Source of the DNA: a virus
Lineage: Duplodnaviria; Caudoviricetes
Reading direction: 5' to 3' (one strand)
Virus record (IMG/VR): IMGVR_UViG_3300044634_003731
Location: 1,155-65,154 of that record
DNA length: 64,000 nt
Position numbers and translations under genes: made by a program. Below, piece by piece: positions 16,560 through 59,150 of this stretch (positions within the stretch are counted from its first letter, which is position 1; each line of letters begins with the position of its first letter). The notes under the pieces are model-generated. The model was not told the DNA's origin. It made no database searches and saw only the letters and a program-made list of their open reading frames with translations.

Positions 16560-16776
16560 ATGCTTTGTGCCACTTGTTCAACTGGTCGTATCATTTGCCA
16601 TTGGGGTCCAAACCCTGGTATATTACTTGAGTCGGTGGGGGAACGAGACCCCAAGTGCCTAGGACCACTTCTGGAACTGGCACAAACCACTTGCCCCGCA
16701 ACGGGTTCCGTGGTATTCTTAAAGGGTGGTTGAGAGACCACCAGCACCTTGACAACTGAATATTTACCACATTATT

Positions 16777-16848
16777 GGGACATTAACTCAGCGGTAGAGT
16801 ATTCGGCTTTTAACCGATTAGTCCTCGGTTCGAATCCGAGATGTCCCA
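16777..16848 (+). tRNA. tRNA-Lys(TTT)
   Basis: cloverleaf, loop CT-TTT-AA. Confidence 0.93.
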
Positions 16849-16851
16849 TAT

Positions 16852-16933
16852 GGGAGGATTTCCGAGTGGTTAAAGGAATCTGACTGTAAATCAGACGGCT
16901 CTGCCTTCACAGGTTCAAATCCTGTTCCTCCCA
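16852..16933 (+). tRNA. tRNA-Tyr(GTA)
   Basis: cloverleaf with long variable arm, loop CT-GTA-AA. Confidence 0.93.
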
Positions 16934-16937
16934 CCTT

Positions 16938-17011
16938 GACGGTGTAGCTTAGTGGTTTAAAGCGCCTGCCTGTCACGCAGGAGATCGGGGGTTCAAATCC
17001 CCTCATCGTCG
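16938..17011 (+). tRNA. tRNA-Asp(GTC)
   Basis: cloverleaf, loop CT-GTC-AC. Confidence 0.93.
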
Positions 17012-17033
17012 TTGGAGTTTATCTCCATAATAT

Positions 17034-17108
17034 GGTCCTATCGTCTAGTGGTGAGGACATCACTCTTTCACAGTGAAGACACGGGTTCAAATCCCGTTAG
17101 GACTACCA
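17034..17108 (+). tRNA. tRNA-Glu(TTC)
   Basis: cloverleaf, loop CT-TTC-AC, encoded CCA. Confidence 0.93.
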
Positions 17109-17185
17109 CGGAATGTAGCGCAGTTTGGTAGCGCATCTGTTTTGGGAACAGAGGGTCGCAGGTTCGAATCCTGTCATTCCGACCA
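17109..17185 (+). tRNA. tRNA-Pro(TGG)
   Basis: cloverleaf, loop TT-TGG-GA, encoded CCA. Confidence 0.93.
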
Positions 17186-17258
17186 GGAAACATAGCTTAG
17201 TTGGTAAAGCATTCGACTGATAATCGAAAGAGCACTGGTTCGAGTCCAGTTGTTTCCA
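17186..17258 (+). tRNA. tRNA-Ile(GAT)
   Basis: cloverleaf, loop CT-GAT-AA. Confidence 0.93.
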
Positions 17259-17281
17259 TTGTTGCTTTGAAGCAACATTAA

Positions 17282-17371
17282 GGAAGTGTGGCAGAGAGGT
17301 TTAATGCAGTGGATTGCTAATCCGCCGATGTTCTTTAAGTGCATCCGTTGGTTCGAATCCAACCACTTCCG
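17282..17371 (+). tRNA. tRNA-Ser(GCT)
   Basis: long variable arm, loop TT-GCT-AA. Confidence 0.9.
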
Positions 17372-17373
17372 TA

Positions 17374-17454
17374 GGACTCCAGCAAGGTGCTTGCTAGGAT
17401 ATAAAAGACTGACGCCTCCCTCTTCAGAAAGAGTACCCAGCAGGTCAGCGTCCA
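17374..17454 (+). ncRNA. candidate structured ncRNA between tRNAs
   Basis: GGAC/GTCC closing stem, AGCAAG/CTTGCT, CTGAC/GTCAG and CTCTT/AAGAG helices. Confidence 0.45.
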
Positions 17455-17458
17455 CTTT

Positions 17459-17530
17459 GGCAGTGTAGTTCAGTGGTAGAACAAGAGATTCATACCCTCT
17501 ATGTCGGTAGTTCAATTCTACCCACTGCCT
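17459..17530 (+). tRNA. tRNA-Met or Ile2 (CAT)
   Basis: cloverleaf, loop TT-CAT-AC; one mismatch in the anticodon stem. Confidence 0.8.
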
Positions 17531-17531
17531 T

Positions 17532-17603
17532 GTGTCGTTAGCCTAGTGGTTAAGGCATCTGTTTGTGGAACAGAGGAGATGAGTTCAATTCTCATACGAC
17601 ACC
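17532..17603 (+). tRNA. tRNA-His(GTG)
   Basis: cloverleaf, loop TT-GTG-GA, C discriminator. Confidence 0.9.
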
Positions 17604-17605
17604 CC

Positions 17606-17676
17606 GCCCGATAAGCATTGTGGTGATGCAGCAGTTTAGTAAACTGCAGAGAACAGTTCAATTCTGTTATTGGGCT
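17606..17676 (+). tRNA. tRNA-Thr(AGT)
   Basis: GCCCGAT/ATTGGGC acceptor; GCAGT-TT AGT AA-ACTGC anticodon arm; TTCAATT T-loop. Confidence 0.8.
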
Positions 17677-17709
17677 CTCAACTATCCGGAATTTCCAGAT
17701 AGTTCAAAT

Positions 17710-17785
17710 GTTCAGGTGGCAGAGTGGTCGAATGCAGAAGTCTGCAAAACTTCTATCACCATGGGTTCGAATCCCACCCTGAACT
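17710..17785 (+). tRNA. tRNA-Cys(GCA)
   Basis: loop CT-GCA-AA, U discriminator. Confidence 0.88.
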
Positions 17786-17819
17786 CTTTAATCCCGTCGA
17801 ATTCCACGGGATTACATAA

Positions 17820-17891
17820 TCCAGAATCGACTAACTGGCAGGTCAGCACCCTTTGAAGGTGTACGTCTAGGTTCGAATCCTAGTTCTGGAA
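17820..17891 (+). tRNA. tRNA-Gln(TTG)
   Basis: cloverleaf, loop CT-TTG-AA. Confidence 0.9.
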
Positions 17892-17909
17892 TTGCTCCAA
17901 TAGGGGCAA

Positions 17910-18085
17910 CAATCTGTCCAACACTGGGGTTCGACTCCCCACATCTCCATTCTTGGGGATGAACTGGTATTCGACTGGGCAGAGGGTTTCGAGAATAAAT
18001 CTCAACAACATCGTATCTTTCCGCAGAACTGCTGTTGCCGTTTGAGCAATAGCACTTTGAGCGAACTGGGGAGTAATCCCCTTTC
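17910..18085 (+). ncRNA. ssrA: circularly permuted (two-piece) tmRNA
   Basis: T-arm + CATCTCCA (17926-17949) precedes GGGGATG...GGTATTCGAC (17955 onward); G3-U70 pair; tag ORF 18001-18045 LNNIVSFRRTAVAV*. Confidence 0.88.
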
Positions 18086-18087
18086 TT

Positions 18088-18161
18088 GTCCTTTTAGCTC
18101 AGTGGAACAGAGCAATAGGCTACGAACCTATGTGTCGGGAGTTCGAATCTCTCAAAGGACG
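18088..18161 (+). tRNA. tRNA-Arg(ACG)
   Basis: cloverleaf, loop CT-ACG-AA. Confidence 0.92.
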
Positions 18162-18162
18162 C

Positions 18163-18219
18163 TGCCAGTCTTCAAACTGGCACAAGGCACTTGACTTTCT
18201 TGGTCAGATGCCTTATGAT
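18163..18219 (+). promoter_or_regulatory. sigma70-like early promoter with upstream palindrome
   Basis: TGCCAGT-N5-ACTGGCA, then TTGACT-N17-TATGAT. Confidence 0.7.
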
Positions 18220-18237
18220 GATTGAGTCAAGGGTTAA

Positions 18238-18309
18238 GGGACTGTCGCCTATTGGTTAAGGCCCACTGCTTATAACGGTGTGAACAGAGTTCAATTCTCT
18301 GCAGTCCTA
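18238..18309 (+). tRNA. tRNA-Ile(TAT)
   Basis: cloverleaf, loop CT-TAT-AA. Confidence 0.88.
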
Positions 18310-18313
18310 CCTT

Positions 18314-18386
18314 GCTCCTTTAGCAATCTGGTGAATGCAGCGAACTCATAATTCGCCTGAGGCGTGTTCAATTCACGCAAGGAGCA
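18314..18386 (+). tRNA. tRNA-Met(CAT), elongator-type
   Basis: cloverleaf, loop CT-CAT-AA. Confidence 0.88.
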
Positions 18387-18410
18387 CTTGGTAATCAAAG
18401 ATTACCTTAT

Positions 18411-18494
18411 GGGAGTATGGTGGAATCGGTAGACACATCAGACTTAAAATCTGCTGGGAGCAATCCCGTGGGAGTTCAAGTCTCCCTACTCCTA
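18411..18494 (+). tRNA. tRNA-Leu(TAA)
   Basis: long variable arm, loop CT-TAA-AA. Confidence 0.92.
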
Positions 18495-18497
18495 CTT

Positions 18498-18571
18498 GCC
18501 GAAGTAATCCAACTGGTAGAGGTGCCTGACTCAAAATCAGGATGTTGTGGGTTCGAATCCCACTTTCGGTA
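18498..18571 (+). tRNA. tRNA-Leu(CAA), short variable loop
   Basis: loop CT-CAA-AA; 74 nt with no long variable arm. Confidence 0.8.
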
Positions 18572-18589
18572 TTGGTTATAACCAATTTT

Positions 18590-18661
18590 ATTGGGATGGT
18601 GTAATTGGTAGCACGAGAGTCTCCAAAACTTTTAGTTAGGGTTCAAGTCCCTATCCCAATG
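18590..18661 (+). tRNA. tRNA-Trp(CCA)
   Basis: cloverleaf, loop CT-CCA-AA. Confidence 0.88.
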
Positions 18662-18755
18662 CTTGACAAATTCTTCTGAGTTTGTTACTATATAAAAGGA
18701 TAGAGGTTAAGTCACTGTTACATCCTTATGAGGTGTATCACACTTAATCCATCAT

Positions 18756-18830
18756 CGTGGGGAAGTGTAACGGTTGCACAGAAGTCTCATAAGCTTCAGG
18801 TAGGTGGTTCAACTCCACCCCCCGCCTCCA
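18756..18830 (+). tRNA. tRNA-Met(CAT), initiator-like
   Basis: C1 mismatch in the acceptor stem, loop CT-CAT-AA, encoded CCA; lacks the 3 G-C anticodon-stem pairs. Confidence 0.75.
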
Positions 18831-18833
18831 ATT

Positions 18834-18916
18834 GCTTCAGTGGTGGAACGGTAGACACAGCGGACTTAGAATCCGCCGCCTTAAAAAGCGTGGAAGTTCA
18901 AATCTTCTCTGGAGCA
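18834..18916 (+). tRNA. tRNA-Leu(TAG)
   Basis: long variable arm, loop CT-TAG-AA. Confidence 0.92.
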
Positions 18917-18956
18917 CTTGACAATCAAACTTAAATAGTTTATGATTGTCTCAACT

Positions 18957-19028
18957 GCGGAATTAGTTCAGTGGTAGAACGCCATCCTTCCAAGTTGGAT
19001 GTCACCGGTTCGAATCCGGTATTCCGCT
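18957..19028 (+). tRNA. tRNA-Gly(TCC)
   Basis: cloverleaf, loop CT-TCC-AA. Confidence 0.92.
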
Positions 19029-19049
19029 CTGAACCTTCGGGTTCTTTAT

Positions 19050-19121
19050 TCCACAATAGCTCAGCGGTAGAGTCGGTGACTGTTAATCACTTGGTCCCTG
19101 GTTCGAATCCAGGTTGTGGAG
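19050..19121 (+). tRNA. tRNA-Asn(GTT)
   Basis: cloverleaf, loop CT-GTT-AA. Confidence 0.93.
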
Positions 19122-19245
19122 TTGGAAGGTCTGGAAATGTCTGGATCTTCCTCTAAATCCTAAGTTTTCTTAGGTCGGGGACTTGATCACCCCCGCTCGT
19201 TGCGGAGAGTGTCTTCCGCGAGTGGTGGGCACTCACTACTCATCA
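19122..19245 (+). ncRNA. multi-hairpin structured ncRNA (possibly manA-motif-like)
   Basis: Five hairpins plus possible loop-loop pairing AGTGTC/GGCACT; lies between tRNA-Asn and tRNA-Val. Confidence 0.55.
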
Positions 19246-19246
19246 A

Positions 19247-19318
19247 GGGCGATTAACTCAGCGGTAGAGTGGCTGCCTTACAAGCAGTAAGTCATTGGTT
19301 CGAATCCGATATTGCCCA
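19247..19318 (+). tRNA. tRNA-Val(TAC)
   Basis: cloverleaf, loop CT-TAC-AA. Confidence 0.92.
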
Positions 19319-19362
19319 TAATAAATAAATTATATTGATGAGAATGAATAGGGTTTAAAATA

Positions 19363-19614
19363 ATGTTGTCAATAAGATGCAAAGATTGTAATAAAGAATT
19401 AATAGGGCACCCATCAAAAACAGTAACGTGTGGTTGTCCCAATATGGCAACAATTCGTGGAGACAAGATTTCGGCACTTGACTTATCTCGAATTGTTATG
19501 CTAAACTCTTTAAAAGAAAATCAAAATAAAAGTGTGCTTACTTCTCAAGATATTGCTTGGCAAGAAGCACGTCGTCAACGTAAAGTAAGACGACTTGATT
19601 TTGAAGTCCGCTAA
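19363..19614 (+). CDS. Zn-ribbon hypothetical protein
   Basis: CKDC...CGCPN. Confidence 0.75.
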   Translation: MLSIRCKDCNKELIGHPSKTVTCGCPNMATIRGDKISALDLSRIVMLNSLKENQNKSVLTSQDIAWQEARRQRKVRRLDFEVR

Positions 19615-19625
19615 GGACTTAATTT

Positions 19626-19709
19626 GGAAAGGTGTCCGAGTGGTTTAAGGAACTTGTCTTGAAAACAAGCGTGTTAATAGCACCGTGGGTTCGAATCCCA
19701 CCCTTTCCG
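19626..19709 (+). tRNA. tRNA-Ser(TGA)
   Basis: long variable arm, loop CT-TGA-AA. Confidence 0.92.
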
Positions 19710-19833
19710 TTACATAGAATACAAATTTAATACTTTCTTTCGTTTTCTGTATAGTAGTGTTACAAAACACTGACATTTAGATGACGTTTAAAATTCTATG
19801 ATTAGTATATAGTAGTACTATGAATAGAAAAAA

Positions 19834-19983
19834 ATGGATCAGCACACCTATAATAATTGGGTGAAGATCAAGGAGACTTTTGAGACTTCTGGTAATACTG
19901 ATAATATGTTCTATAAGAGAGCAGTTGAAATCGTAAAAACCCGAAGAGATCCTCTTGCAAAATTTCTTGGCGATGAAAAATGA
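19834..19983 (+). CDS. small hypothetical protein (49 aa)
   Basis: MDQHTYNNWVKIKETFETSGNTDNMFYKRA..DPLA. Confidence 0.65.
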   Translation: MDQHTYNNWVKIKETFETSGNTDNMFYKRAVEIVKTRRDPLAKFLGDEK

Positions 19984-20183
19984 TATGTGAACAAAAAGAA
20001 TTTATTACACGTTCTGAAGTTCAGGAGATGATCGATGCAGCAATACGACGACACAACCGTAATGCTTCTATCATTAGTATGTGCGTCGGTTGGGTGGTTC
20101 TTGCTTTATTTGCTGAGGGACTTTTGAGATTAGTTGGAGTTATTCCTCCACTATTTTCTTGGATGAAAATAACATTAAATTAA
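19980..20183 (+). CDS. small membrane protein
   Basis: EVQEMIDAAIRRHNRNASIISM followed by a TM helix. Confidence 0.7.
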   Translation: MICEQKEFITRSEVQEMIDAAIRRHNRNASIISMCVGWVVLALFAEGLLRLVGVIPPLFSWMKITLN

Positions 20184-20302
20184 AAAAATGACTAAAACAA
20201 TATATAACGCTATAATTACTTTTAGTATTATTGGTTTTTTTATTTTTTGGGGACTTACTCACTCTTATTATAAATAAACAAAAATAAATTAATTGAAATA
20301 TT

Positions 20303-20797
20303 ATGGCAACAAAAACTATAACTTTATCTGTGACTTCTCCCACTGAAGGATATGCTTGGAATGTAAATTTTTCTGTTGATGATGCAACATTAATAAGAAA
20401 TATAGTTAATTTTTCAATTAATTGTCCTACTAATACTGAAGGTAATTTCTCTGTTCCAAGTACTGCAAATATAAGTCAAGTAGTTAATGGATATTCTAGT
20501 CATTCTGATACTAATGGAGGAACTCCTTCTTCTCTAGCAGATTCTGGAGCAAATAGTTATGTAACTTGGAGATCTATTTTAAGGAATGGACAATTTCCCA
20601 CTTCGGGAAAAAGTTTAGATATATGGAGTTATCAATTTTATAATGATATTATGTATAGTTCTAAAACTTGGGCACAAATAGGTAATGGATCTACTTATTC
20701 GTTAAACCCAGGAAAATGGAGTCTAATTTATGATTACTCCTCAAGGAATGTTTTTGCATTATCTAAAGGTGGAACATTAACAGTTTCTGTTGTATGA
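20303..20797 (+). CDS. Ser/Thr/Asn-rich hypothetical protein
   Basis: 164-aa ORF, beta-rich composition, no recognised motif. Confidence 0.6.
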   Translation: MATKTITLSVTSPTEGYAWNVNFSVDDATLIRNIVNFSINCPTNTEGNFSVPSTANISQVVNGYSSHSDTNGGTPSSLADSGANSYVTWRSILRNGQFPTSGKSLDIWSYQFYNDIMYSSKTWAQIGNGSTYSLNPGKWSLIYDYSSRNVFALSKGGTLTVSVV

Positions 20798-20909
20798 TAA
20801 AAATTGTAGAATATCTTTTGACCCATCAATGGTCATTGTTTGTTATTGGTTGTCTCTTGACACTTGGACCTGCAATGGGTATAATGATTGTGCATCAAAA
20901 TAAAAACAT

Positions 20910-20983
20910 CGGGCATTAGCGCAGTTTGGTAGCGCGTTCCGTTTGGGGCGGAAAGGTCAAAGGTTCAAATCCTTTATGCCCGA
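20910..20983 (+). tRNA. tRNA-Pro(TGG), second copy
   Basis: TTCCG-TT TGG GG-CGGAA anticodon arm. Confidence 0.88.
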
Positions 20984-21001
20984 CTCATAAAATCTTACTT
21001 T

Positions 21002-38519: not shown

Positions 38520-38639
38520 ATGAAGAAAATTTTTACCGAAAAAGCAGAACGTATTAATGGTTGGTTCGCAATGATTGGTTTCGTTGCAGCCGTTGGTTCT
38601 TACCTTGTTACCGGTCAAATTATTCCTGGTGTATTTTGA
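38520..38639 (+). CDS. hli: high-light inducible protein, second copy (39 aa, absent from the ORF track)
   Basis: AAGGAG RBS; AERINGWFAMIGF...TGQIIPGVF*. Confidence 0.92.
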   Translation: MKKIFTEKAERINGWFAMIGFVAAVGSYLVTGQIIPGVF

Positions 38640-38650
38640 TGGAGGTTTCT

Positions 38651-39154
38651 ATGAGAGCAGAAGGATATGAAATTCCCCAGGTGGAATTTGTATTTCGTGA
38701 GAATGGTAAATTTGTAAATCGTACATCAAAAGAACTTTTCGATGGGAAGCGTGTGGTCATTTTTAGTCTGCCTGGTGCTTTCACTCCTACTTGCAGTGCC
38801 TATCAGCTACCTGGATTCGAAGAGAAATACGACGACTTTATTGGTAACGGCATCGACGCTATTTACTGCATCTCTGTTAATGATGGGTTTGTGATGAATG
38901 CATGGGCAAAAGACCAAGGAATTGAAAAGGTAAAACTTATTCCTGATGGTAATGCGTATTTTACGCGATCTATGGGGATGCTTGTTACTAAATCTAATCT
39001 TGGTTTTGGTGAAAGGTCTTGGCGTTATGCTGCAGTTGTAGATAATGGCATTATTGAAAAACTTTTTGTTGAAGCAGGAAAACGTGATAATGCAGATACT
39101 GATCCTTATGAAGTAACTAATCCAGAGACTATTCTTTCTTATTTGAAAAGTTAA
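38651..39154 (+). CDS. type II peroxiredoxin (Prx5 family)
   Basis: GGAGG RBS; LPGAFTPTCS, SVND.FVM.AW, RSWRYA. Confidence 0.92.
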   Translation: MRAEGYEIPQVEFVFRENGKFVNRTSKELFDGKRVVIFSLPGAFTPTCSAYQLPGFEEKYDDFIGNGIDAIYCISVNDGFVMNAWAKDQGIEKVKLIPDGNAYFTRSMGMLVTKSNLGFGERSWRYAAVVDNGIIEKLFVEAGKRDNADTDPYEVTNPETILSYLKS

Positions 39155-39221
39155 TATTGAAATGAGGAGGGAATTAACCCTCCTTTTTTAATAAATAATT
39201 TTATCTGGTTTGGGTACTATA

Positions 39222-39920
39222 ATGCTTATAGATCTTCATAACTTTTTTAAATTCTACGATGAGAAAAATCCAAAGCATGTTGCTGCAGTAGAACAGTTTG
39301 AAAAAGATTTGCTTTTAAAATCTCAAGAATTGATACAAGATGATGCTAACTGGGTTAGAATTTTTAGAACTAAAGAAGACAAACCCCAAGCAACTATTTT
39401 ACCAGTTCCTTTCTATCCACAAACAGATAACTATAGAGATGCAAATAGAACTTGCAACTCATCTGCTTGTGCGATGTGCCTTGAGTATTTCAAACCTGGT
39501 ACACTAAAAGGATCTAAAGGCGATGATGCCTATGTACAAAAAGTTTTCTCGATCGGTGACACAACTGATCACTTGGTTCAGACCAAGGTTCTTGCAACAT
39601 ATGGTATTAAATCCAGTTTTTCCTACAGCCTTACTTTTGCTGATCTTGATAGAGAGCTTGCCGCTGGTAGACCTGTTGTTATTGGTATTCTTCATCGGGG
39701 TCCTTTATCTAACCCCACGGGAGGACACATGGTAGTTGTGATTGGTAAAACTCCTAGTGGAGATTATGTAGTAAATGATCCTTATGGATCACTCAACGAT
39801 GGTTATACTGGTGCAGTAACTAATGGTAAGGGTGCAGTATATAAGCGTAGTGAACTTACTCGTAGATGGTGTCCTAGTGGAAAAGATGGTTGGGGTAGAA
39901 TATTTGATGTAAAAAAGTAG
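39222..39920 (+). CDS. C39-like cysteine peptidase (lysin N-terminal part)
   Basis: Cys-His-Asp triad RTCNSSACAM / GGHMVVV / VNDPYG; ends GTA AAA AAG TAG. Confidence 0.85.
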   Translation: MLIDLHNFFKFYDEKNPKHVAAVEQFEKDLLLKSQELIQDDANWVRIFRTKEDKPQATILPVPFYPQTDNYRDANRTCNSSACAMCLEYFKPGTLKGSKGDDAYVQKVFSIGDTTDHLVQTKVLATYGIKSSFSYSLTFADLDRELAAGRPVVIGILHRGPLSNPTGGHMVVVIGKTPSGDYVVNDPYGSLNDGYTGAVTNGKGAVYKRSELTRRWCPSGKDGWGRIFDVKK

Positions 39921-39983
39921 AATCAGCACTACAATCAAAAATCCCTCAATGTGGTGTTGATTTAATTAGAGAATTTGAGGGAT
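39911..39983 (+). promoter_or_regulatory. programmed -1 ribosomal frameshift signal (slippery heptamer + H-type pseudoknot)
   Basis: A_AAA_AAG 39911-39917; stem 1 39921-33/39950-62; stem 2 39941-49/39975-83. Confidence 0.8.
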
Positions 39984-40399
39984 GTCATTTAAATGCCTAT
40001 CCAGATCCATTGACTGGTTCACTCCCAATCACAATTGGTTGGGGTTCTACCAAAGATTTTAATGGACAATCGTTTAAACTTGGAAGAAAAATCACCCAAG
40101 AGTATGCAGATAAACTACTATTGTTTGACCTTGAGCAAAGATTTCTTCCTTCACTACAAAAAATCCCACATTGGAATGAAATGTCAGATGGAAAAAGAGG
40201 CGCTTTGCTCAGCTTTGCTTATAATCTTGGTGCCGGTTTTTACGGCGGTTCTAACTTTAATACTATTACTAAATGTCTGAAAAATAAAGAATGGTCTAAA
40301 GTTCCTGATGTATTATATCTTTATCGCAATCCCGGAACTAATGTAGAGAAAGGACTTGCTCGCAGAAGAGTTGCTGAAGGTAAACTCTGGAATTCTTAA
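39917..40399 (+). CDS. GH24 lysozyme domain in the -1 frame with no start codon before its active site
   Basis: GVDLIREFEG..AYPDP...TIGWGST, ALLSFAYNLG, GLARRRVAEG. Confidence 0.85.
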   Translation, partial: VESALQSKIPQCGVDLIREFEGCHLNAYPDPLTGSLPITIGWGSTKDFNGQSFKLGRKITQEYADKLLLFDLEQRFLPSLQKIPHWNEMSDGKRGALLSFAYNLGAGFYGGSNFNTITKCLKNKEWSKVPDVLYLYRNPGTNVEKGLARRRVAEGKLWNS

Positions 40400-40728
40400 T
40401 CACTATCTTCTACTCTTGTTCTTAGTGCAATTACTGTAGTAAGAATAGTCAGTAAAGTTTCATATCCTCTTCTTTCAGATTCTTTGCAATCTAAAGGAGG
40501 AGGGTTTTTTAATTCTCCTTTTACATTTGCTTTGTTTATAGTTCCCGGAATCATAAAGTTGCAAGAAACAAAGTTAATACCAACAAATCCAATTACAGAA
40601 CAACATATTACAAATATAAGTTTATTTAATAATGAACCGTGCTTTTTTCCTACCTCTTTTGGCGGGTCGTCTAATGAATCTGATGATTTCTGGGAATTGT
40701 CTTTTTGGTTGAGGTCTTCTTCCTTCAT
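40396..40728 (-). CDS. membrane hypothetical protein
   Basis: TM helix; C-terminal TLLTILTTVIAL. Confidence 0.6.
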   Translation of the reverse strand: MKEEDLNQKDNSQKSSDSLDDPPKEVGKKHGSLLNKLIFVICCSVIGFVGINFVSCNFMIPGTINKANVKGELKNPPPLDCKESERRGYETLLTILTTVIALRTRVEDSD

Positions 40729-58254: not shown

Positions 58255-58821
58255 ATGGCAGCAACTAAAACAAAACCTAAAACATTGATTGAAAATTTAC
58301 CTACAAATCCTTTTATTTTTGAAATTTTAAATTTAGTTTCAAAACAAAGAACAAATGGTAAAAAAATAGAAATTCTTCAAAAATATGAAGATCCTTCACT
58401 TAAAACAATTTTAATTTGGAACTTTGACGAGTCTGTGATTTCTTTACTTCCAGAGGGGGAAGTTCCTTATGCAAGTACAGGGGAGCAGACATCTTATAGT
58501 GGAACATTAAGTGGAAAAATTGAAGATGCAGTTTCTAAAATGGAAGAAATGAATTCAAATTCTCTTGGATCTATGGACCAAGGTAAATCTTCAATTAGAA
58601 AAGAATATACTATGTTTTATAATTTCGTAAAAGGTGGTAATGATGGATTAAGTTCTCTTCGCAGAGAAACTATGTTTATCAATATTCTTCAGGGTCTTCA
58701 TCCACTTGAAGCGGAAATTGTTTGTCTTGTAAAAGATAAAAAACTTCAAAATAAATATAAAATTACTAAAGAAATTGTTAGTGAGGCATATCCCGATATT
58801 CAATGGGGTGGTCGTTCATGA
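58255..58821 (+). CDS. conserved T4-like hypothetical protein
   Basis: IWNFD..LPEGEVPY, RRE.MFI..L.GLHP.EAE. Confidence 0.8.
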   Translation: MAATKTKPKTLIENLPTNPFIFEILNLVSKQRTNGKKIEILQKYEDPSLKTILIWNFDESVISLLPEGEVPYASTGEQTSYSGTLSGKIEDAVSKMEEMNSNSLGSMDQGKSSIRKEYTMFYNFVKGGNDGLSSLRRETMFINILQGLHPLEAEIVCLVKDKKLQNKYKITKEIVSEAYPDIQWGGRS

Positions 58822-59150
58822 ATGTGCTTTTAAAGGAGAAATCGAAAATGGCAGAAAAAAATCAAACCAATAAAGTTCTGCCTAGTGAATATGGATGTGA
58901 AATTCTTCTTGAAAAGACCACTCTTGATAAAACAAAAGATTCTTCATTTCCAAATGACGCATATTTAATTTGGTATAAAGTGGATGAAGAAATTCACATC
59001 GATCTTGTAAGAGGATCTAGGGTCCGTATTTTTGATATGTATTATGATAAGTATGGATTGGGATCTGTTCAAAAAATCGATTTTGGATATGGAAGAACAA
59101 ATCCAAAATTGTGGAGATATCAAAAACCAGAAAAGAAAAAAAAGAAATGA
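58818..59150 (+). CDS. hypothetical protein
   Basis: IFDMYYD...FGYGRTNPKLW. Confidence 0.7.
   Translation: MNVLLKEKSKMAEKNQTNKVLPSEYGCEILLEKTTLDKTKDSSFPNDAYLIWYKVDEEIHIDLVRGSRVRIFDMYYDKYGLGSVQKIDFGYGRTNPKLWRYQKPEKKKKK

Follow-up and report, generated by a model that had tools for sequence, protein, structure and literature searches.

Results

A peptidase gene and a lysozyme frame meet at a slippery heptamer

We analyzed a 64,000-nt stretch of DNA from a Caudoviricetes virus (IMG/VR record IMGVR_UViG_3300044634_003731, positions 1,155–65,154; hereafter the window), in which a gene for a C39-like, papain-fold cysteine peptidase runs into a frame encoding a GH24 lysozyme (muramidase), the two very probably forming one lysin gene decoded with a programmed –1 ribosomal frameshift. 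The peptidase open reading frame (ORF; 39222–39920, + strand) encodes 232 amino acids, beginning with an N-terminal module of about 50 residues (39222–39380, IDLHNFFKFYDEKNP...). It ends ...GAT GTA AAA AAG TAG, so that the heptamer A_AAA_AAG (39911–39917, +) lies in the X_XXY_YYZ phase relative to the peptidase frame and the 0-frame stop TAG (39918–39920, +) abuts it. The –1 frame contains a TGA at 39905–39907, is open from 39908 to 40399 and reads CKKVESALQSKIPQCGVDLIREFEG...; its continuation beyond the site (39917–40399, +) consists of 160 codons and a stop, encoding a linker and the lysozyme domain. The first ATG, GTG or TTG codon of this frame is TTG 40010, which lies 3′ of the Glu codon (39977–39979) of an EFEG motif. 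Only about 10 nt (39908–39917) allow a –1 shift to join the two frames, and A_AAA_AAG occupies this interval.

Immediately 3′ of the stop, the sequence can form a hairpin (stem 1) in which the 5′ arm AATCAGCACTACA (39921–39933, +) pairs with the 3′ arm TGTGGTGTTGATT (39950–39962, +) over 13 bp, including two G-U pairs; the 3′ arm falls within the C-G-V-D-L codons at the start of the lysozyme domain. A putative stem 2 of 9 bp would pair ATCCCTCAA (39941–39949, +), which lies in the I-P-Q codons inside the stem 1 loop, with TTGAGGGAT (39975–39983, +) inside the F-E-G-C codons, giving an H-type pseudoknot with loops of 7, 0 and 12 nt. The end of the peptidase gene and position of the heptamer, the open –1 frame with no start before the catalytic Glu, and the lengths, positions and loops of both stems had all been given in an original prediction made from these letters, and each was verified in the sequence.

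The lysozyme domain is intact and under constraint

Both frames encode recognizable enzymes. The 0-frame product matches PF13529 (Peptidase_C39_2) with 52.1 bits (cut-off 24, E = 1.4e-13), and its residues Q67, C78, C83, H169 and D186 are invariant in 7/7 diverse homologues. A search of PDB sequences with the peptidase gave no match at E 0.1. An AlphaFold model of it (pLDDT 78.6) returned 19 Foldseek matches at E ≤ 0.001, and those listed are papain-fold or C39-like peptidases; among them are the phytochelatin-synthase-like peptidase Alr0975, the C39-like 3erv, the peptidase domains of PCAT1 and ComA, and the pseudomurein endoisopeptidase PeiR, all at TMq 0.4–0.5. The –1 frame matches PF00959 (Phage_lysozyme) over residues 22–157 of 163 (72.2 bits, cut-off 22.3, E = 6.2e-20). 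Nine solved GH24 lysozymes and endolysins match this frame as well (best E = 8.6e-14), and since they align from residue 13 (PQCGVDL), initiation at TTG 40010 would truncate the domain. The Glu of EFEG is invariant in the aligned lysozyme rows, and we take it to be the catalytic residue by reference to the T4 and P22 lysozymes. Median dN/dS was 0.13 for the lysozyme frame (31 frameshift-type sequences) and 0.10 for the peptidase, values indicating that purifying selection acts on both.

Several observations suggest that the two domains belong to one protein. The peptidase and the –1 frame are collinear on PHROG 3617, covering positions 1–235 and 243–405 of 405, and both domains also occur naturally fused in frame, with 19 distinct examples among the loci described below. 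The N-terminal module of the peptidase is without a Pfam match and is helical in the AlphaFold model. One group of stand-alone lysozymes (the type found in phage DSL-LC02 and in ORFs of loci L039, L036 and L113) starts with a module 54% identical to it (E = 4e-15). These separate lysozymes carry their own copy; the frameshift-type lysozyme would obtain the module only through fusion to the peptidase. Targeting, regulation and wall binding are possible roles for the module, and the PHROG annotations and domain content together suggest that the peptidase-lysozyme pair acts as an endolysin.

Two further arrangements were observed. A second group of stand-alone lysozymes begins with a different N-terminal module (MTIKFIDA...). 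In phage S-CREM1 (L003, 797–1978) the same two domains occupy one ORF in reversed order, lysozyme first and peptidase second, which corresponds to PHROG 10051, the peptidase mapping to positions 225–453.

Every –1 lysozyme lacking its own ATG follows an in-phase slippery heptamer

To place the window among its relatives, we assembled 248 loci from three overlapping IMG/VR scans of 80 loci each (queried with the window lysozyme frame, an in-frame fusion from phage ACG-2014f and the fusion of locus L110), seven isolate records and the window. A blastn search of isolate phages matched 61 Synechococcus phage records at 60–80% identity; S-PM2 among the isolates has the same layout as the window at about 72% nucleotide identity. 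In 172 loci (124 distinct sequences) the C-terminus of the peptidase (GWGR) adjoins the N-terminus of the lysozyme (EFEG), and these form the junction set; the 76 loci left out are cut contigs, other lysozyme neighbours, genes more than 420 nt apart and the reversed order of S-CREM1.

All 124 junctions fit five classes. The lysozyme lies in the –1 frame, overlapping the peptidase at an in-phase A_AAA_AAG, in 50 distinct junctions (68 loci, with the window and S-PM2 among them), and at U_UUU_UUU in a further three (the S-CAM7 type). Six are in-frame fusions that retain an in-phase A_AAA_AAG, 13 are in-frame fusions without the heptamer, and in 52 the lysozyme has its own ATG and is separate from or abuts the peptidase gene. 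Every –1 lysozyme without its own ATG thus has an in-phase slippery heptamer. Plain in-frame fusions among homologues, which the original prediction had named as counting against a frameshift, do exist in other lineages, where the 13 have neither the heptamer nor the hairpin; the 50 A_AAA_AAG junctions are not of this kind. The 13 show the architectural diversity of the family and do not refute a frameshift.

The conservation of the site is strict. The heptamer is in the X_XXY_YYZ phase in 50/50 of the overlapping A_AAA_AAG junctions, its seventh base is always G, and 49/50 have a run of exactly six A. The codon that supplies X varies between loci, encoding A, V, T, P, I or E, but its third base is always A. 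The Lys codons are AAA then AAG with a synonymous pair difference of 0.00–0.07, compared with 0.38 gene-wide (median dS about 0.9–1.3). In keeping with the prediction that homologous loci would keep AAAAAAG followed by a stop, the 0-frame stop comes directly after the heptamer in 46/50 junctions, one codon on in three and 69 codons on in one; the stop after the heptamer is TAG in 43/50. Of the heptamers tried in E. coli, A_AAA_AAG is the most prone to shifting, and it is the one used in dnaX (PMC5009743).

An alternative is that the lysozyme is made alone, through termination-reinitiation or a non-canonical or rare start in the linker, with the heptamer and hairpin serving, for example, pausing or mRNA stability. 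ATGA start/stop overlaps do occur in S-SRM01 and in L113–115, L123, L124, L126 and L128, and in S-SRM01 the heptamer lies beside the lysozyme's own ATG. Upstream of LIKEFEG, though, 46/50 A_AAA_AAG junctions have no ATG in the lysozyme frame, and 33/50, the window and S-PM2 among them, lack any ATG, GTG or TTG from the opening of the frame to LIKEFEG. The NTG codons in the other junctions sit at varying positions, a re-initiated product would lack the N-terminal module found on stand-alone lysozymes of relatives, and the invariant phase of the heptamer would go unexplained. We therefore consider separate production of the lysozyme improbable.

The isolate records bear a trace of this arrangement. 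In S-PM2 (L001, 1757–1975) and S-CAM7 (L087, 1759–2031) the lysozyme was deposited as a short coding sequence (CDS), 'putative lysin' or 'lysin', that starts after EFEG; in both GenBank records the interval from the peptidase stop to the lysin start is unannotated and there is no slippage join. These short CDSs look like mis-annotations caused by the frameshift.

A hairpin conserved as structure follows the heptamer

RNAfold returned stem 1 as the minimum free energy (MFE) structure of the window's junction (–17 kcal/mol). To compare loci, we scored the stretch from the heptamer to the LIK codons against dinucleotide shuffles. The fold z-score was below –2 in 49/50 A6G junctions (mean –4.55) and in 3/3 U7 junctions; among in-frame fusions it was below –2 in 4/6 with the heptamer versus 1/13 without it, and in 14/52 stand-alone lysozymes. 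Raw MFE values ran the opposite way (–16.4 kcal/mol for frameshift-type loci versus –20.8 for the others) because of the G+C-rich Ala/Pro linkers of the other loci, and the shuffle z-scores were used instead. In 46/48 heptamer-bearing junctions of the first two scans the main helix, of 7–21 pairs, starts 0–7 nt 3′ of the heptamer.

The structure recurs with unrelated sequences. At least five sequence-unrelated arm pairs were found across lineages, for example AATCAACACCACA/TGTGGTGTTGATT, GCCAACTAA/TTAGTTGGC and, in S-PM2, AGCTCTACT/AGTAGAGCT, and further unrelated arms occur in L032, L083, L111, L116 and the U7 type. Duplexes of a locus's own 5′ and 3′ arms averaged –18.2 kcal/mol versus –8.1 for cross-lineage combinations, and the own arm was the best partner in 30/31. 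As the register of the hairpin differs by 3 nt between clades, paired changes were counted per clade rather than in a single all-lineage alignment. Within the window's clade (18 distinct sequences), 5/13 stem 1 pairs change on both sides, a count equalled by 0/500 shuffles and by no slid control, and RNAalifold predicts stem 1 unprompted. Clade 2 alone has little variation and a single double change, for which 282/500 shuffles were as good. An Rfam search produced only a noise match (rli40, 9.6 bits against a threshold of 100), and the dnaX hairpin model was without a match. Taken across lineages, the pattern indicates that the 3′ stimulator is conserved as a structure rather than as a sequence.

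A second stem is plausible in the window's clade

The original prediction described the stimulator as a pseudoknot. Its first stem stands on the compensatory changes above; its second stem found no such support, and it is not general. In the window, the stem 2 duplex has a predicted energy of –13.8 kcal/mol, a value reached by 0/200 loop shuffles, and 96.9% of cells are paired across the 18 sequences of the clade. None of the nine pairs (0/9) shows a double change; one-sided changes give wobble pairs or fall at the helix end. Duplexes between the loop and downstream sequence in this clade range from –9.7 to –14.6 kcal/mol, equalled by 0–4 of 200 loop shuffles, with the exception of L035 (–5.2 kcal/mol, not significant).

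Synonymous sites offer indirect support. In the window's clade, 22 of 203 (11%) amino-acid-invariant degenerate codon columns are also codon-invariant, and in the lysozyme frame these include the heptamer codons and two stem 2 codons, Pro CCT in the 5′ arm and Gly GGA in the 3′ arm (18/18); 17/18 sequences use GAG for the Glu in the 3′ arm. In clade 2, which lacks the stem 2 5′ arm, the same codons vary (GAG in 3/10, GGA in 6/10). L118 has a longer pairing of this kind (14 bp, –21.2 kcal/mol), as do L109/L110 (–19.1 kcal/mol), and no significant stem 2 pairing was found in clade 2, S-PM2, L032, L083 or the U7 type. Support for stem 2 therefore consists of synonymous-site constraint and recurrence in some lineages; that both of its arms sit in conserved codons speaks against selection for the pairing itself. 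On balance, we lean toward stem 2 forming and mattering in the window's clade, where it is plausible. Because several frameshift-type lineages, S-PM2 among them, do without it, the general stimulator is the hairpin.

The run of six A residues is real

A split gene at a homopolymer could also arise from an assembly indel in a plain fusion, or mark a dying lysozyme pseudogene. Homopolymers are error-prone, and in-frame fusions of the same domains do exist in other lineages. We looked for independent DNA covering the site; the original prediction had proposed read mapping to exclude an indel, a seventh A being the sign of an assembly error. A 375-nt contig from DNA run X2 bridges the junction with no differences, and a 1551-nt contig from run X3 bridges it with 12 substitutions and no gaps. 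The two runs come from different studies, the sequence-bearing runs being lake or freshwater metagenomes, and their contigs independently uphold A6. The A6G-plus-stop arrangement is moreover found in 68 loci, from many metagenomes and from S-PM2, and the lysozyme frame is intact in all 68, with the low dN/dS given above. An artefact or a decaying gene is thereby effectively refuted.

Spacer changes flip the frame, and one lineage has replaced the site

Some of the fusions that retain the heptamer appear to use it in the other direction. In L109 and L110, which are near the S-PM2 lineage, the heptamer is kept together with an 11–16-bp hairpin (AGTTCTACT with AGTAGAACT) that is compensatory to the S-PM2 stem. 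Their spacer is 6 nt instead of 5, so that the 0-frame enters the lysozyme and the –1 frame has only one codon before a stop. Loci of the ACG-2014f type follow the same logic with a 7–8-bp hairpin. In both types a –1 shift meets a stop at GTC TGA or GCC TGA. We propose with moderate confidence, from two lineages and few independent sequences, that these loci are dnaX-like, with standard decoding yielding the long form and a shift the short one.

In the S-CAM7 type (L087, L106 and L107) the junction reads G TTT TTT TTC CA CAG TAG, with U_UUU_UUU inside a run of eight T and the lysozyme in –1. A 13-bp hairpin starts 5 nt after the heptamer and contains the 0-frame stop. Here the slippery site has been replaced and the arrangement kept, with polymerase slippage a live alternative for this type.

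Transcriptional slippage would have RNA polymerase add or drop an A (or a U in the S-CAM7 type), so that part of the mRNA encodes the fusion in frame. Known bacterial cases use runs of about 8–9 or more. The site is a homopolymer, and the S-CAM7 type reaches eight T. AAAAAAA and UUUUUUU may be avoided on account of such slippage (PMC4066793), and Thermus, with two tRNA-Lys, uses polymerase slippage for dnaX (PMC5009743). Against this, the A run is exactly six in all but one of the 50 A_AAA_AAG junctions, which is below the length of the bacterial runs. The invariant G at position 7 and the invariant X_XXY_YYZ phase are relevant to tRNA re-pairing and not to a polymerase, and the co-varying hairpin, at a spacing suited to ribosomal frameshifting, accompanies the heptamer and is absent without it. 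Across the family as a whole, we consider transcriptional slippage an improbable explanation.

tRNA-Lys(UUU) shows no specific association with the frameshift

Slippage at AAG had been linked in the original prediction to the supply of a phage-encoded tRNA-Lys(UUU), which might tie lysis to tRNA levels. The gene is indeed present, at 16776–16849, but the link was not supported. tRNA-Lys(UUU) occurs in the window, S-PM2 and G003, a complete 246-kb relative, all of the frameshift type, and also in G006 and G007, which have a separate lysozyme gene. A search that used BLAST with the window tRNA and ARAGORN on the matches only, over contigs of which many are incomplete, did not detect it in S-SRM01, DSL-LC02, ACG-2014f or S-CAM7. 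With the tRNA present beside separate genes and undetected in other heptamer-bearing isolates, we rejected the association as evidence either way; nor is the in-phase heptamer avoided in the phage's genes (see below). A single tRNA-Lys is all that about half of bacteria possess, and this is the basis for A_AAA_AAG being slippery in E. coli (PMC5009743).

The window's tRNA-Lys opens a cluster of 24 tRNA genes (16776–20984, +) whose initial order, Lys, Tyr, Asp, Glu, is common to S-PM2. In G003, ARAGORN also called a tmRNA-like gene upstream of the tRNA cluster (L255, 828–1129), marked with an asterisk and with the tag ANKIVAFSRSKVATLV, which may be a false positive.

Neighbouring features

Upstream of the lysin unit lies a peroxiredoxin gene (38561–39154) that matches phrog_2281, and between the two is a terminator-like hairpin (39164–39185). 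The closest relatives of the peroxiredoxin in 185,579 species genomes are mostly from Alphaproteobacteria (52–66% identity), with no picocyanobacterium among them. Convergent with the lysin gene is a 110-amino acid ORF (40396–40728, – strand) that has no PHROG match and carries a long hydrophobic stretch (...LIFVICCSVIGFVGINFV...); it could encode a membrane protein of the lysis module, such as a holin. Another in-phase A_AAA_AAG occurs at 59138–59144, three codons before the end of ORF 58803–59150, in the context AAA GAA AAA AAA GAA ATG A.

Discussion

A frameshift that would fuse peptidase and muramidase

The phase of the heptamer, the –1 relation of the two frames, the co-varying hairpin, the real A6 run and the purifying selection on the lysozyme lead us to favor, at a probability of roughly 0.85, a programmed –1 ribosomal frameshift of the dnaX/IS3 type that yields a 232-residue peptidase and a 392-residue peptidase-muramidase in a T4-like cyanophage related to Kyanoviridae. 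A ribosome translating the peptidase ORF would reach A_AAA_AAG with Lys-tRNAs on AAA in the P site and AAG in the A site. There a 13–14-bp hairpin, with a G+C-containing core about 6 nt past the heptamer and possibly extended to an H-type pseudoknot in the window's clade, would resist unwinding. A fraction of ribosomes would slip back one base, re-pair on AAA-AAA and continue in –1, making the 392-residue peptidase-linker-GH24 muramidase with the junction ...FDVKK-VESALQ.... Ribosomes that stay in frame would stop immediately at UAG, releasing the 232-residue peptidase. Slippage by the ribosome, its efficiency and a part for both products in lysis are inferred.

A number of observations weigh on the other side. 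The window's own sequence (80 nt) reaches a fold z-score of just –1.93, and AAAAAAG is common, occurring 56 times in the window where 49.05 would be expected. Nor is in-phase A_AAA_AAG depleted in the ORFs of the 65-kb contig to which the window belongs (9 versus 6.8 expected, with 252/300 shuffles at or below the observed 9), and the heptamer by itself is probably tolerated there. With the heptamer common and the window's fold weak, significance comes from the homologous loci and not from the window alone. The full 13–14-bp stem in the window's clade leaves a spacer of 2–3 nt, shorter than the usual 5–9 nt; for the spacer to reach about 6 nt, the A-U-rich pairs at the foot of the stem would have to be open. 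An NTG codon is present in 17/50, and an ATG in 4/50, of the lysozyme frames upstream of LIKEFEG, which is what production of the lysozyme alone would call for, and S-SRM01 keeps the heptamer although its ATG overlaps the stop (ATGA) and no hairpin is predicted there; the heptamer can thus persist where re-initiation may do the job. Finally, contigs of two metatranscriptome runs leave 39717–39964 uncovered, and this gap in the RNA at the junction leaves room for transcriptional slippage. In sum, the comparative evidence strongly supports the core claim of the original prediction, that a shift at A_AAA_AAG joins the lysozyme to the peptidase and so gives the lysin two forms; it does not support a pseudoknot as the general stimulator, or the tRNA-Lys link.

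If correct, this places a well-conserved recoding site in the lysis machinery of abundant aquatic cyanophages, away from the tail-chaperone and capsid genes that are the usual setting. It also corrects annotation, the lysozyme of S-PM2 and S-CAM7 being annotated only as a CDS truncated past the catalytic Glu, and S-PM2 with its host Synechococcus WH7803 is a laboratory system in which the frameshift can be tested. The cyanobacterial wall is thick and highly cross-linked, and the frameshift may explain how peptidase is dosed against muramidase on it. The family amounts to a natural experiment in fusing and splitting genes, in which the two domains are separate, coupled, fused in frame in both orders or fused by frameshift, and single-base changes in the spacer switch between states.

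We also considered a more speculative idea, namely that the cassette, kept as it is in both frame configurations, is an evolvable ratio-setter for lysis and more than a way to join two domains, with selection for both proteins, one-base spacer indels that invert their ratio and shifting efficiency that changes in the course of infection. We think this rather unlikely. Were it true, tRNA-Lys(UUU) supply or the translational state of the host could vary the shifting, and the composition of the lysin would act as a lysis clock.

Comparison with known systems

The mechanism is classical; its setting in a lysin gene is new as far as the literature found extends, and the comparative support for it is unusually rich. 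A 1994 paper by Shearman on a lactococcal phage lysin reportedly describes overlapping in-frame genes and is a possible precedent. That paper is cited by the PRFect study, which counts lysins among the genes 'known to contain a frameshift' (PMC10885494). The original prediction knew of no description in a lysin gene, and we likewise found no account of frameshifting in the lysin or lysozyme of a cyanophage, in a full-text literature search that left subscription journals largely, and supplementary files wholly, outside, or in term look-ups in the PRFect paper, the first 300,000 characters of a 2016 recoding review (PMC5009743), Sharma et al. 2014 (PMC4066793) and a 2025 preprint (10.1101/2025.10.02.679949).

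The closest parallel is E. coli dnaX, which makes tau and gamma. Like the window, it has A_AAA_AAG, a 3′ hairpin a few nucleotides downstream and two products that share an N-terminus, and its polarity, with the long form in the 0-frame, is also that of the ACG-2014f type and L109/L110. Unlike in dnaX, the shift in the window lengthens the protein, the 0-frame stop abuts the heptamer and the gene encodes a phage cell-wall hydrolase; no upstream Shine-Dalgarno-like stimulator is evident in the window, where no dedicated test for one was made. The OrfA/OrfAB systems of the IS3 family (IS3, IS911 and IS150) resemble the window in polarity, making an upstream product alone and a trans-frame fusion at A_AAA_AAG with a downstream ORF that lacks a start. 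Their stimulator is a hairpin or a pseudoknot. The IS3 pseudoknot serves as a tool in PMC4066793. The window's proteins are unrelated to those of the IS3 family, its element is not mobile, and the 3′ arm of its stimulator is located in the conserved first helix of the catalytic domain encoded downstream.

Among phages, the lambda G/GT tail assembly chaperone has a conserved –1 frameshift that makes a short and an extended form from one start, at G_GGA_AAG and without a strong structure. It belongs to virion assembly, whereas the gene in the window would belong to lysis. In lysis itself, LysA of mycobacteriophage Ms6 is one lysin gene giving two proteins that share sequence, the second made from an internal in-frame start and lacking the N-terminus (PMC3111421). 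By contrast, the two forms predicted for the window would share their N-terminus and differ by a C-terminal catalytic domain added through a change of frame.

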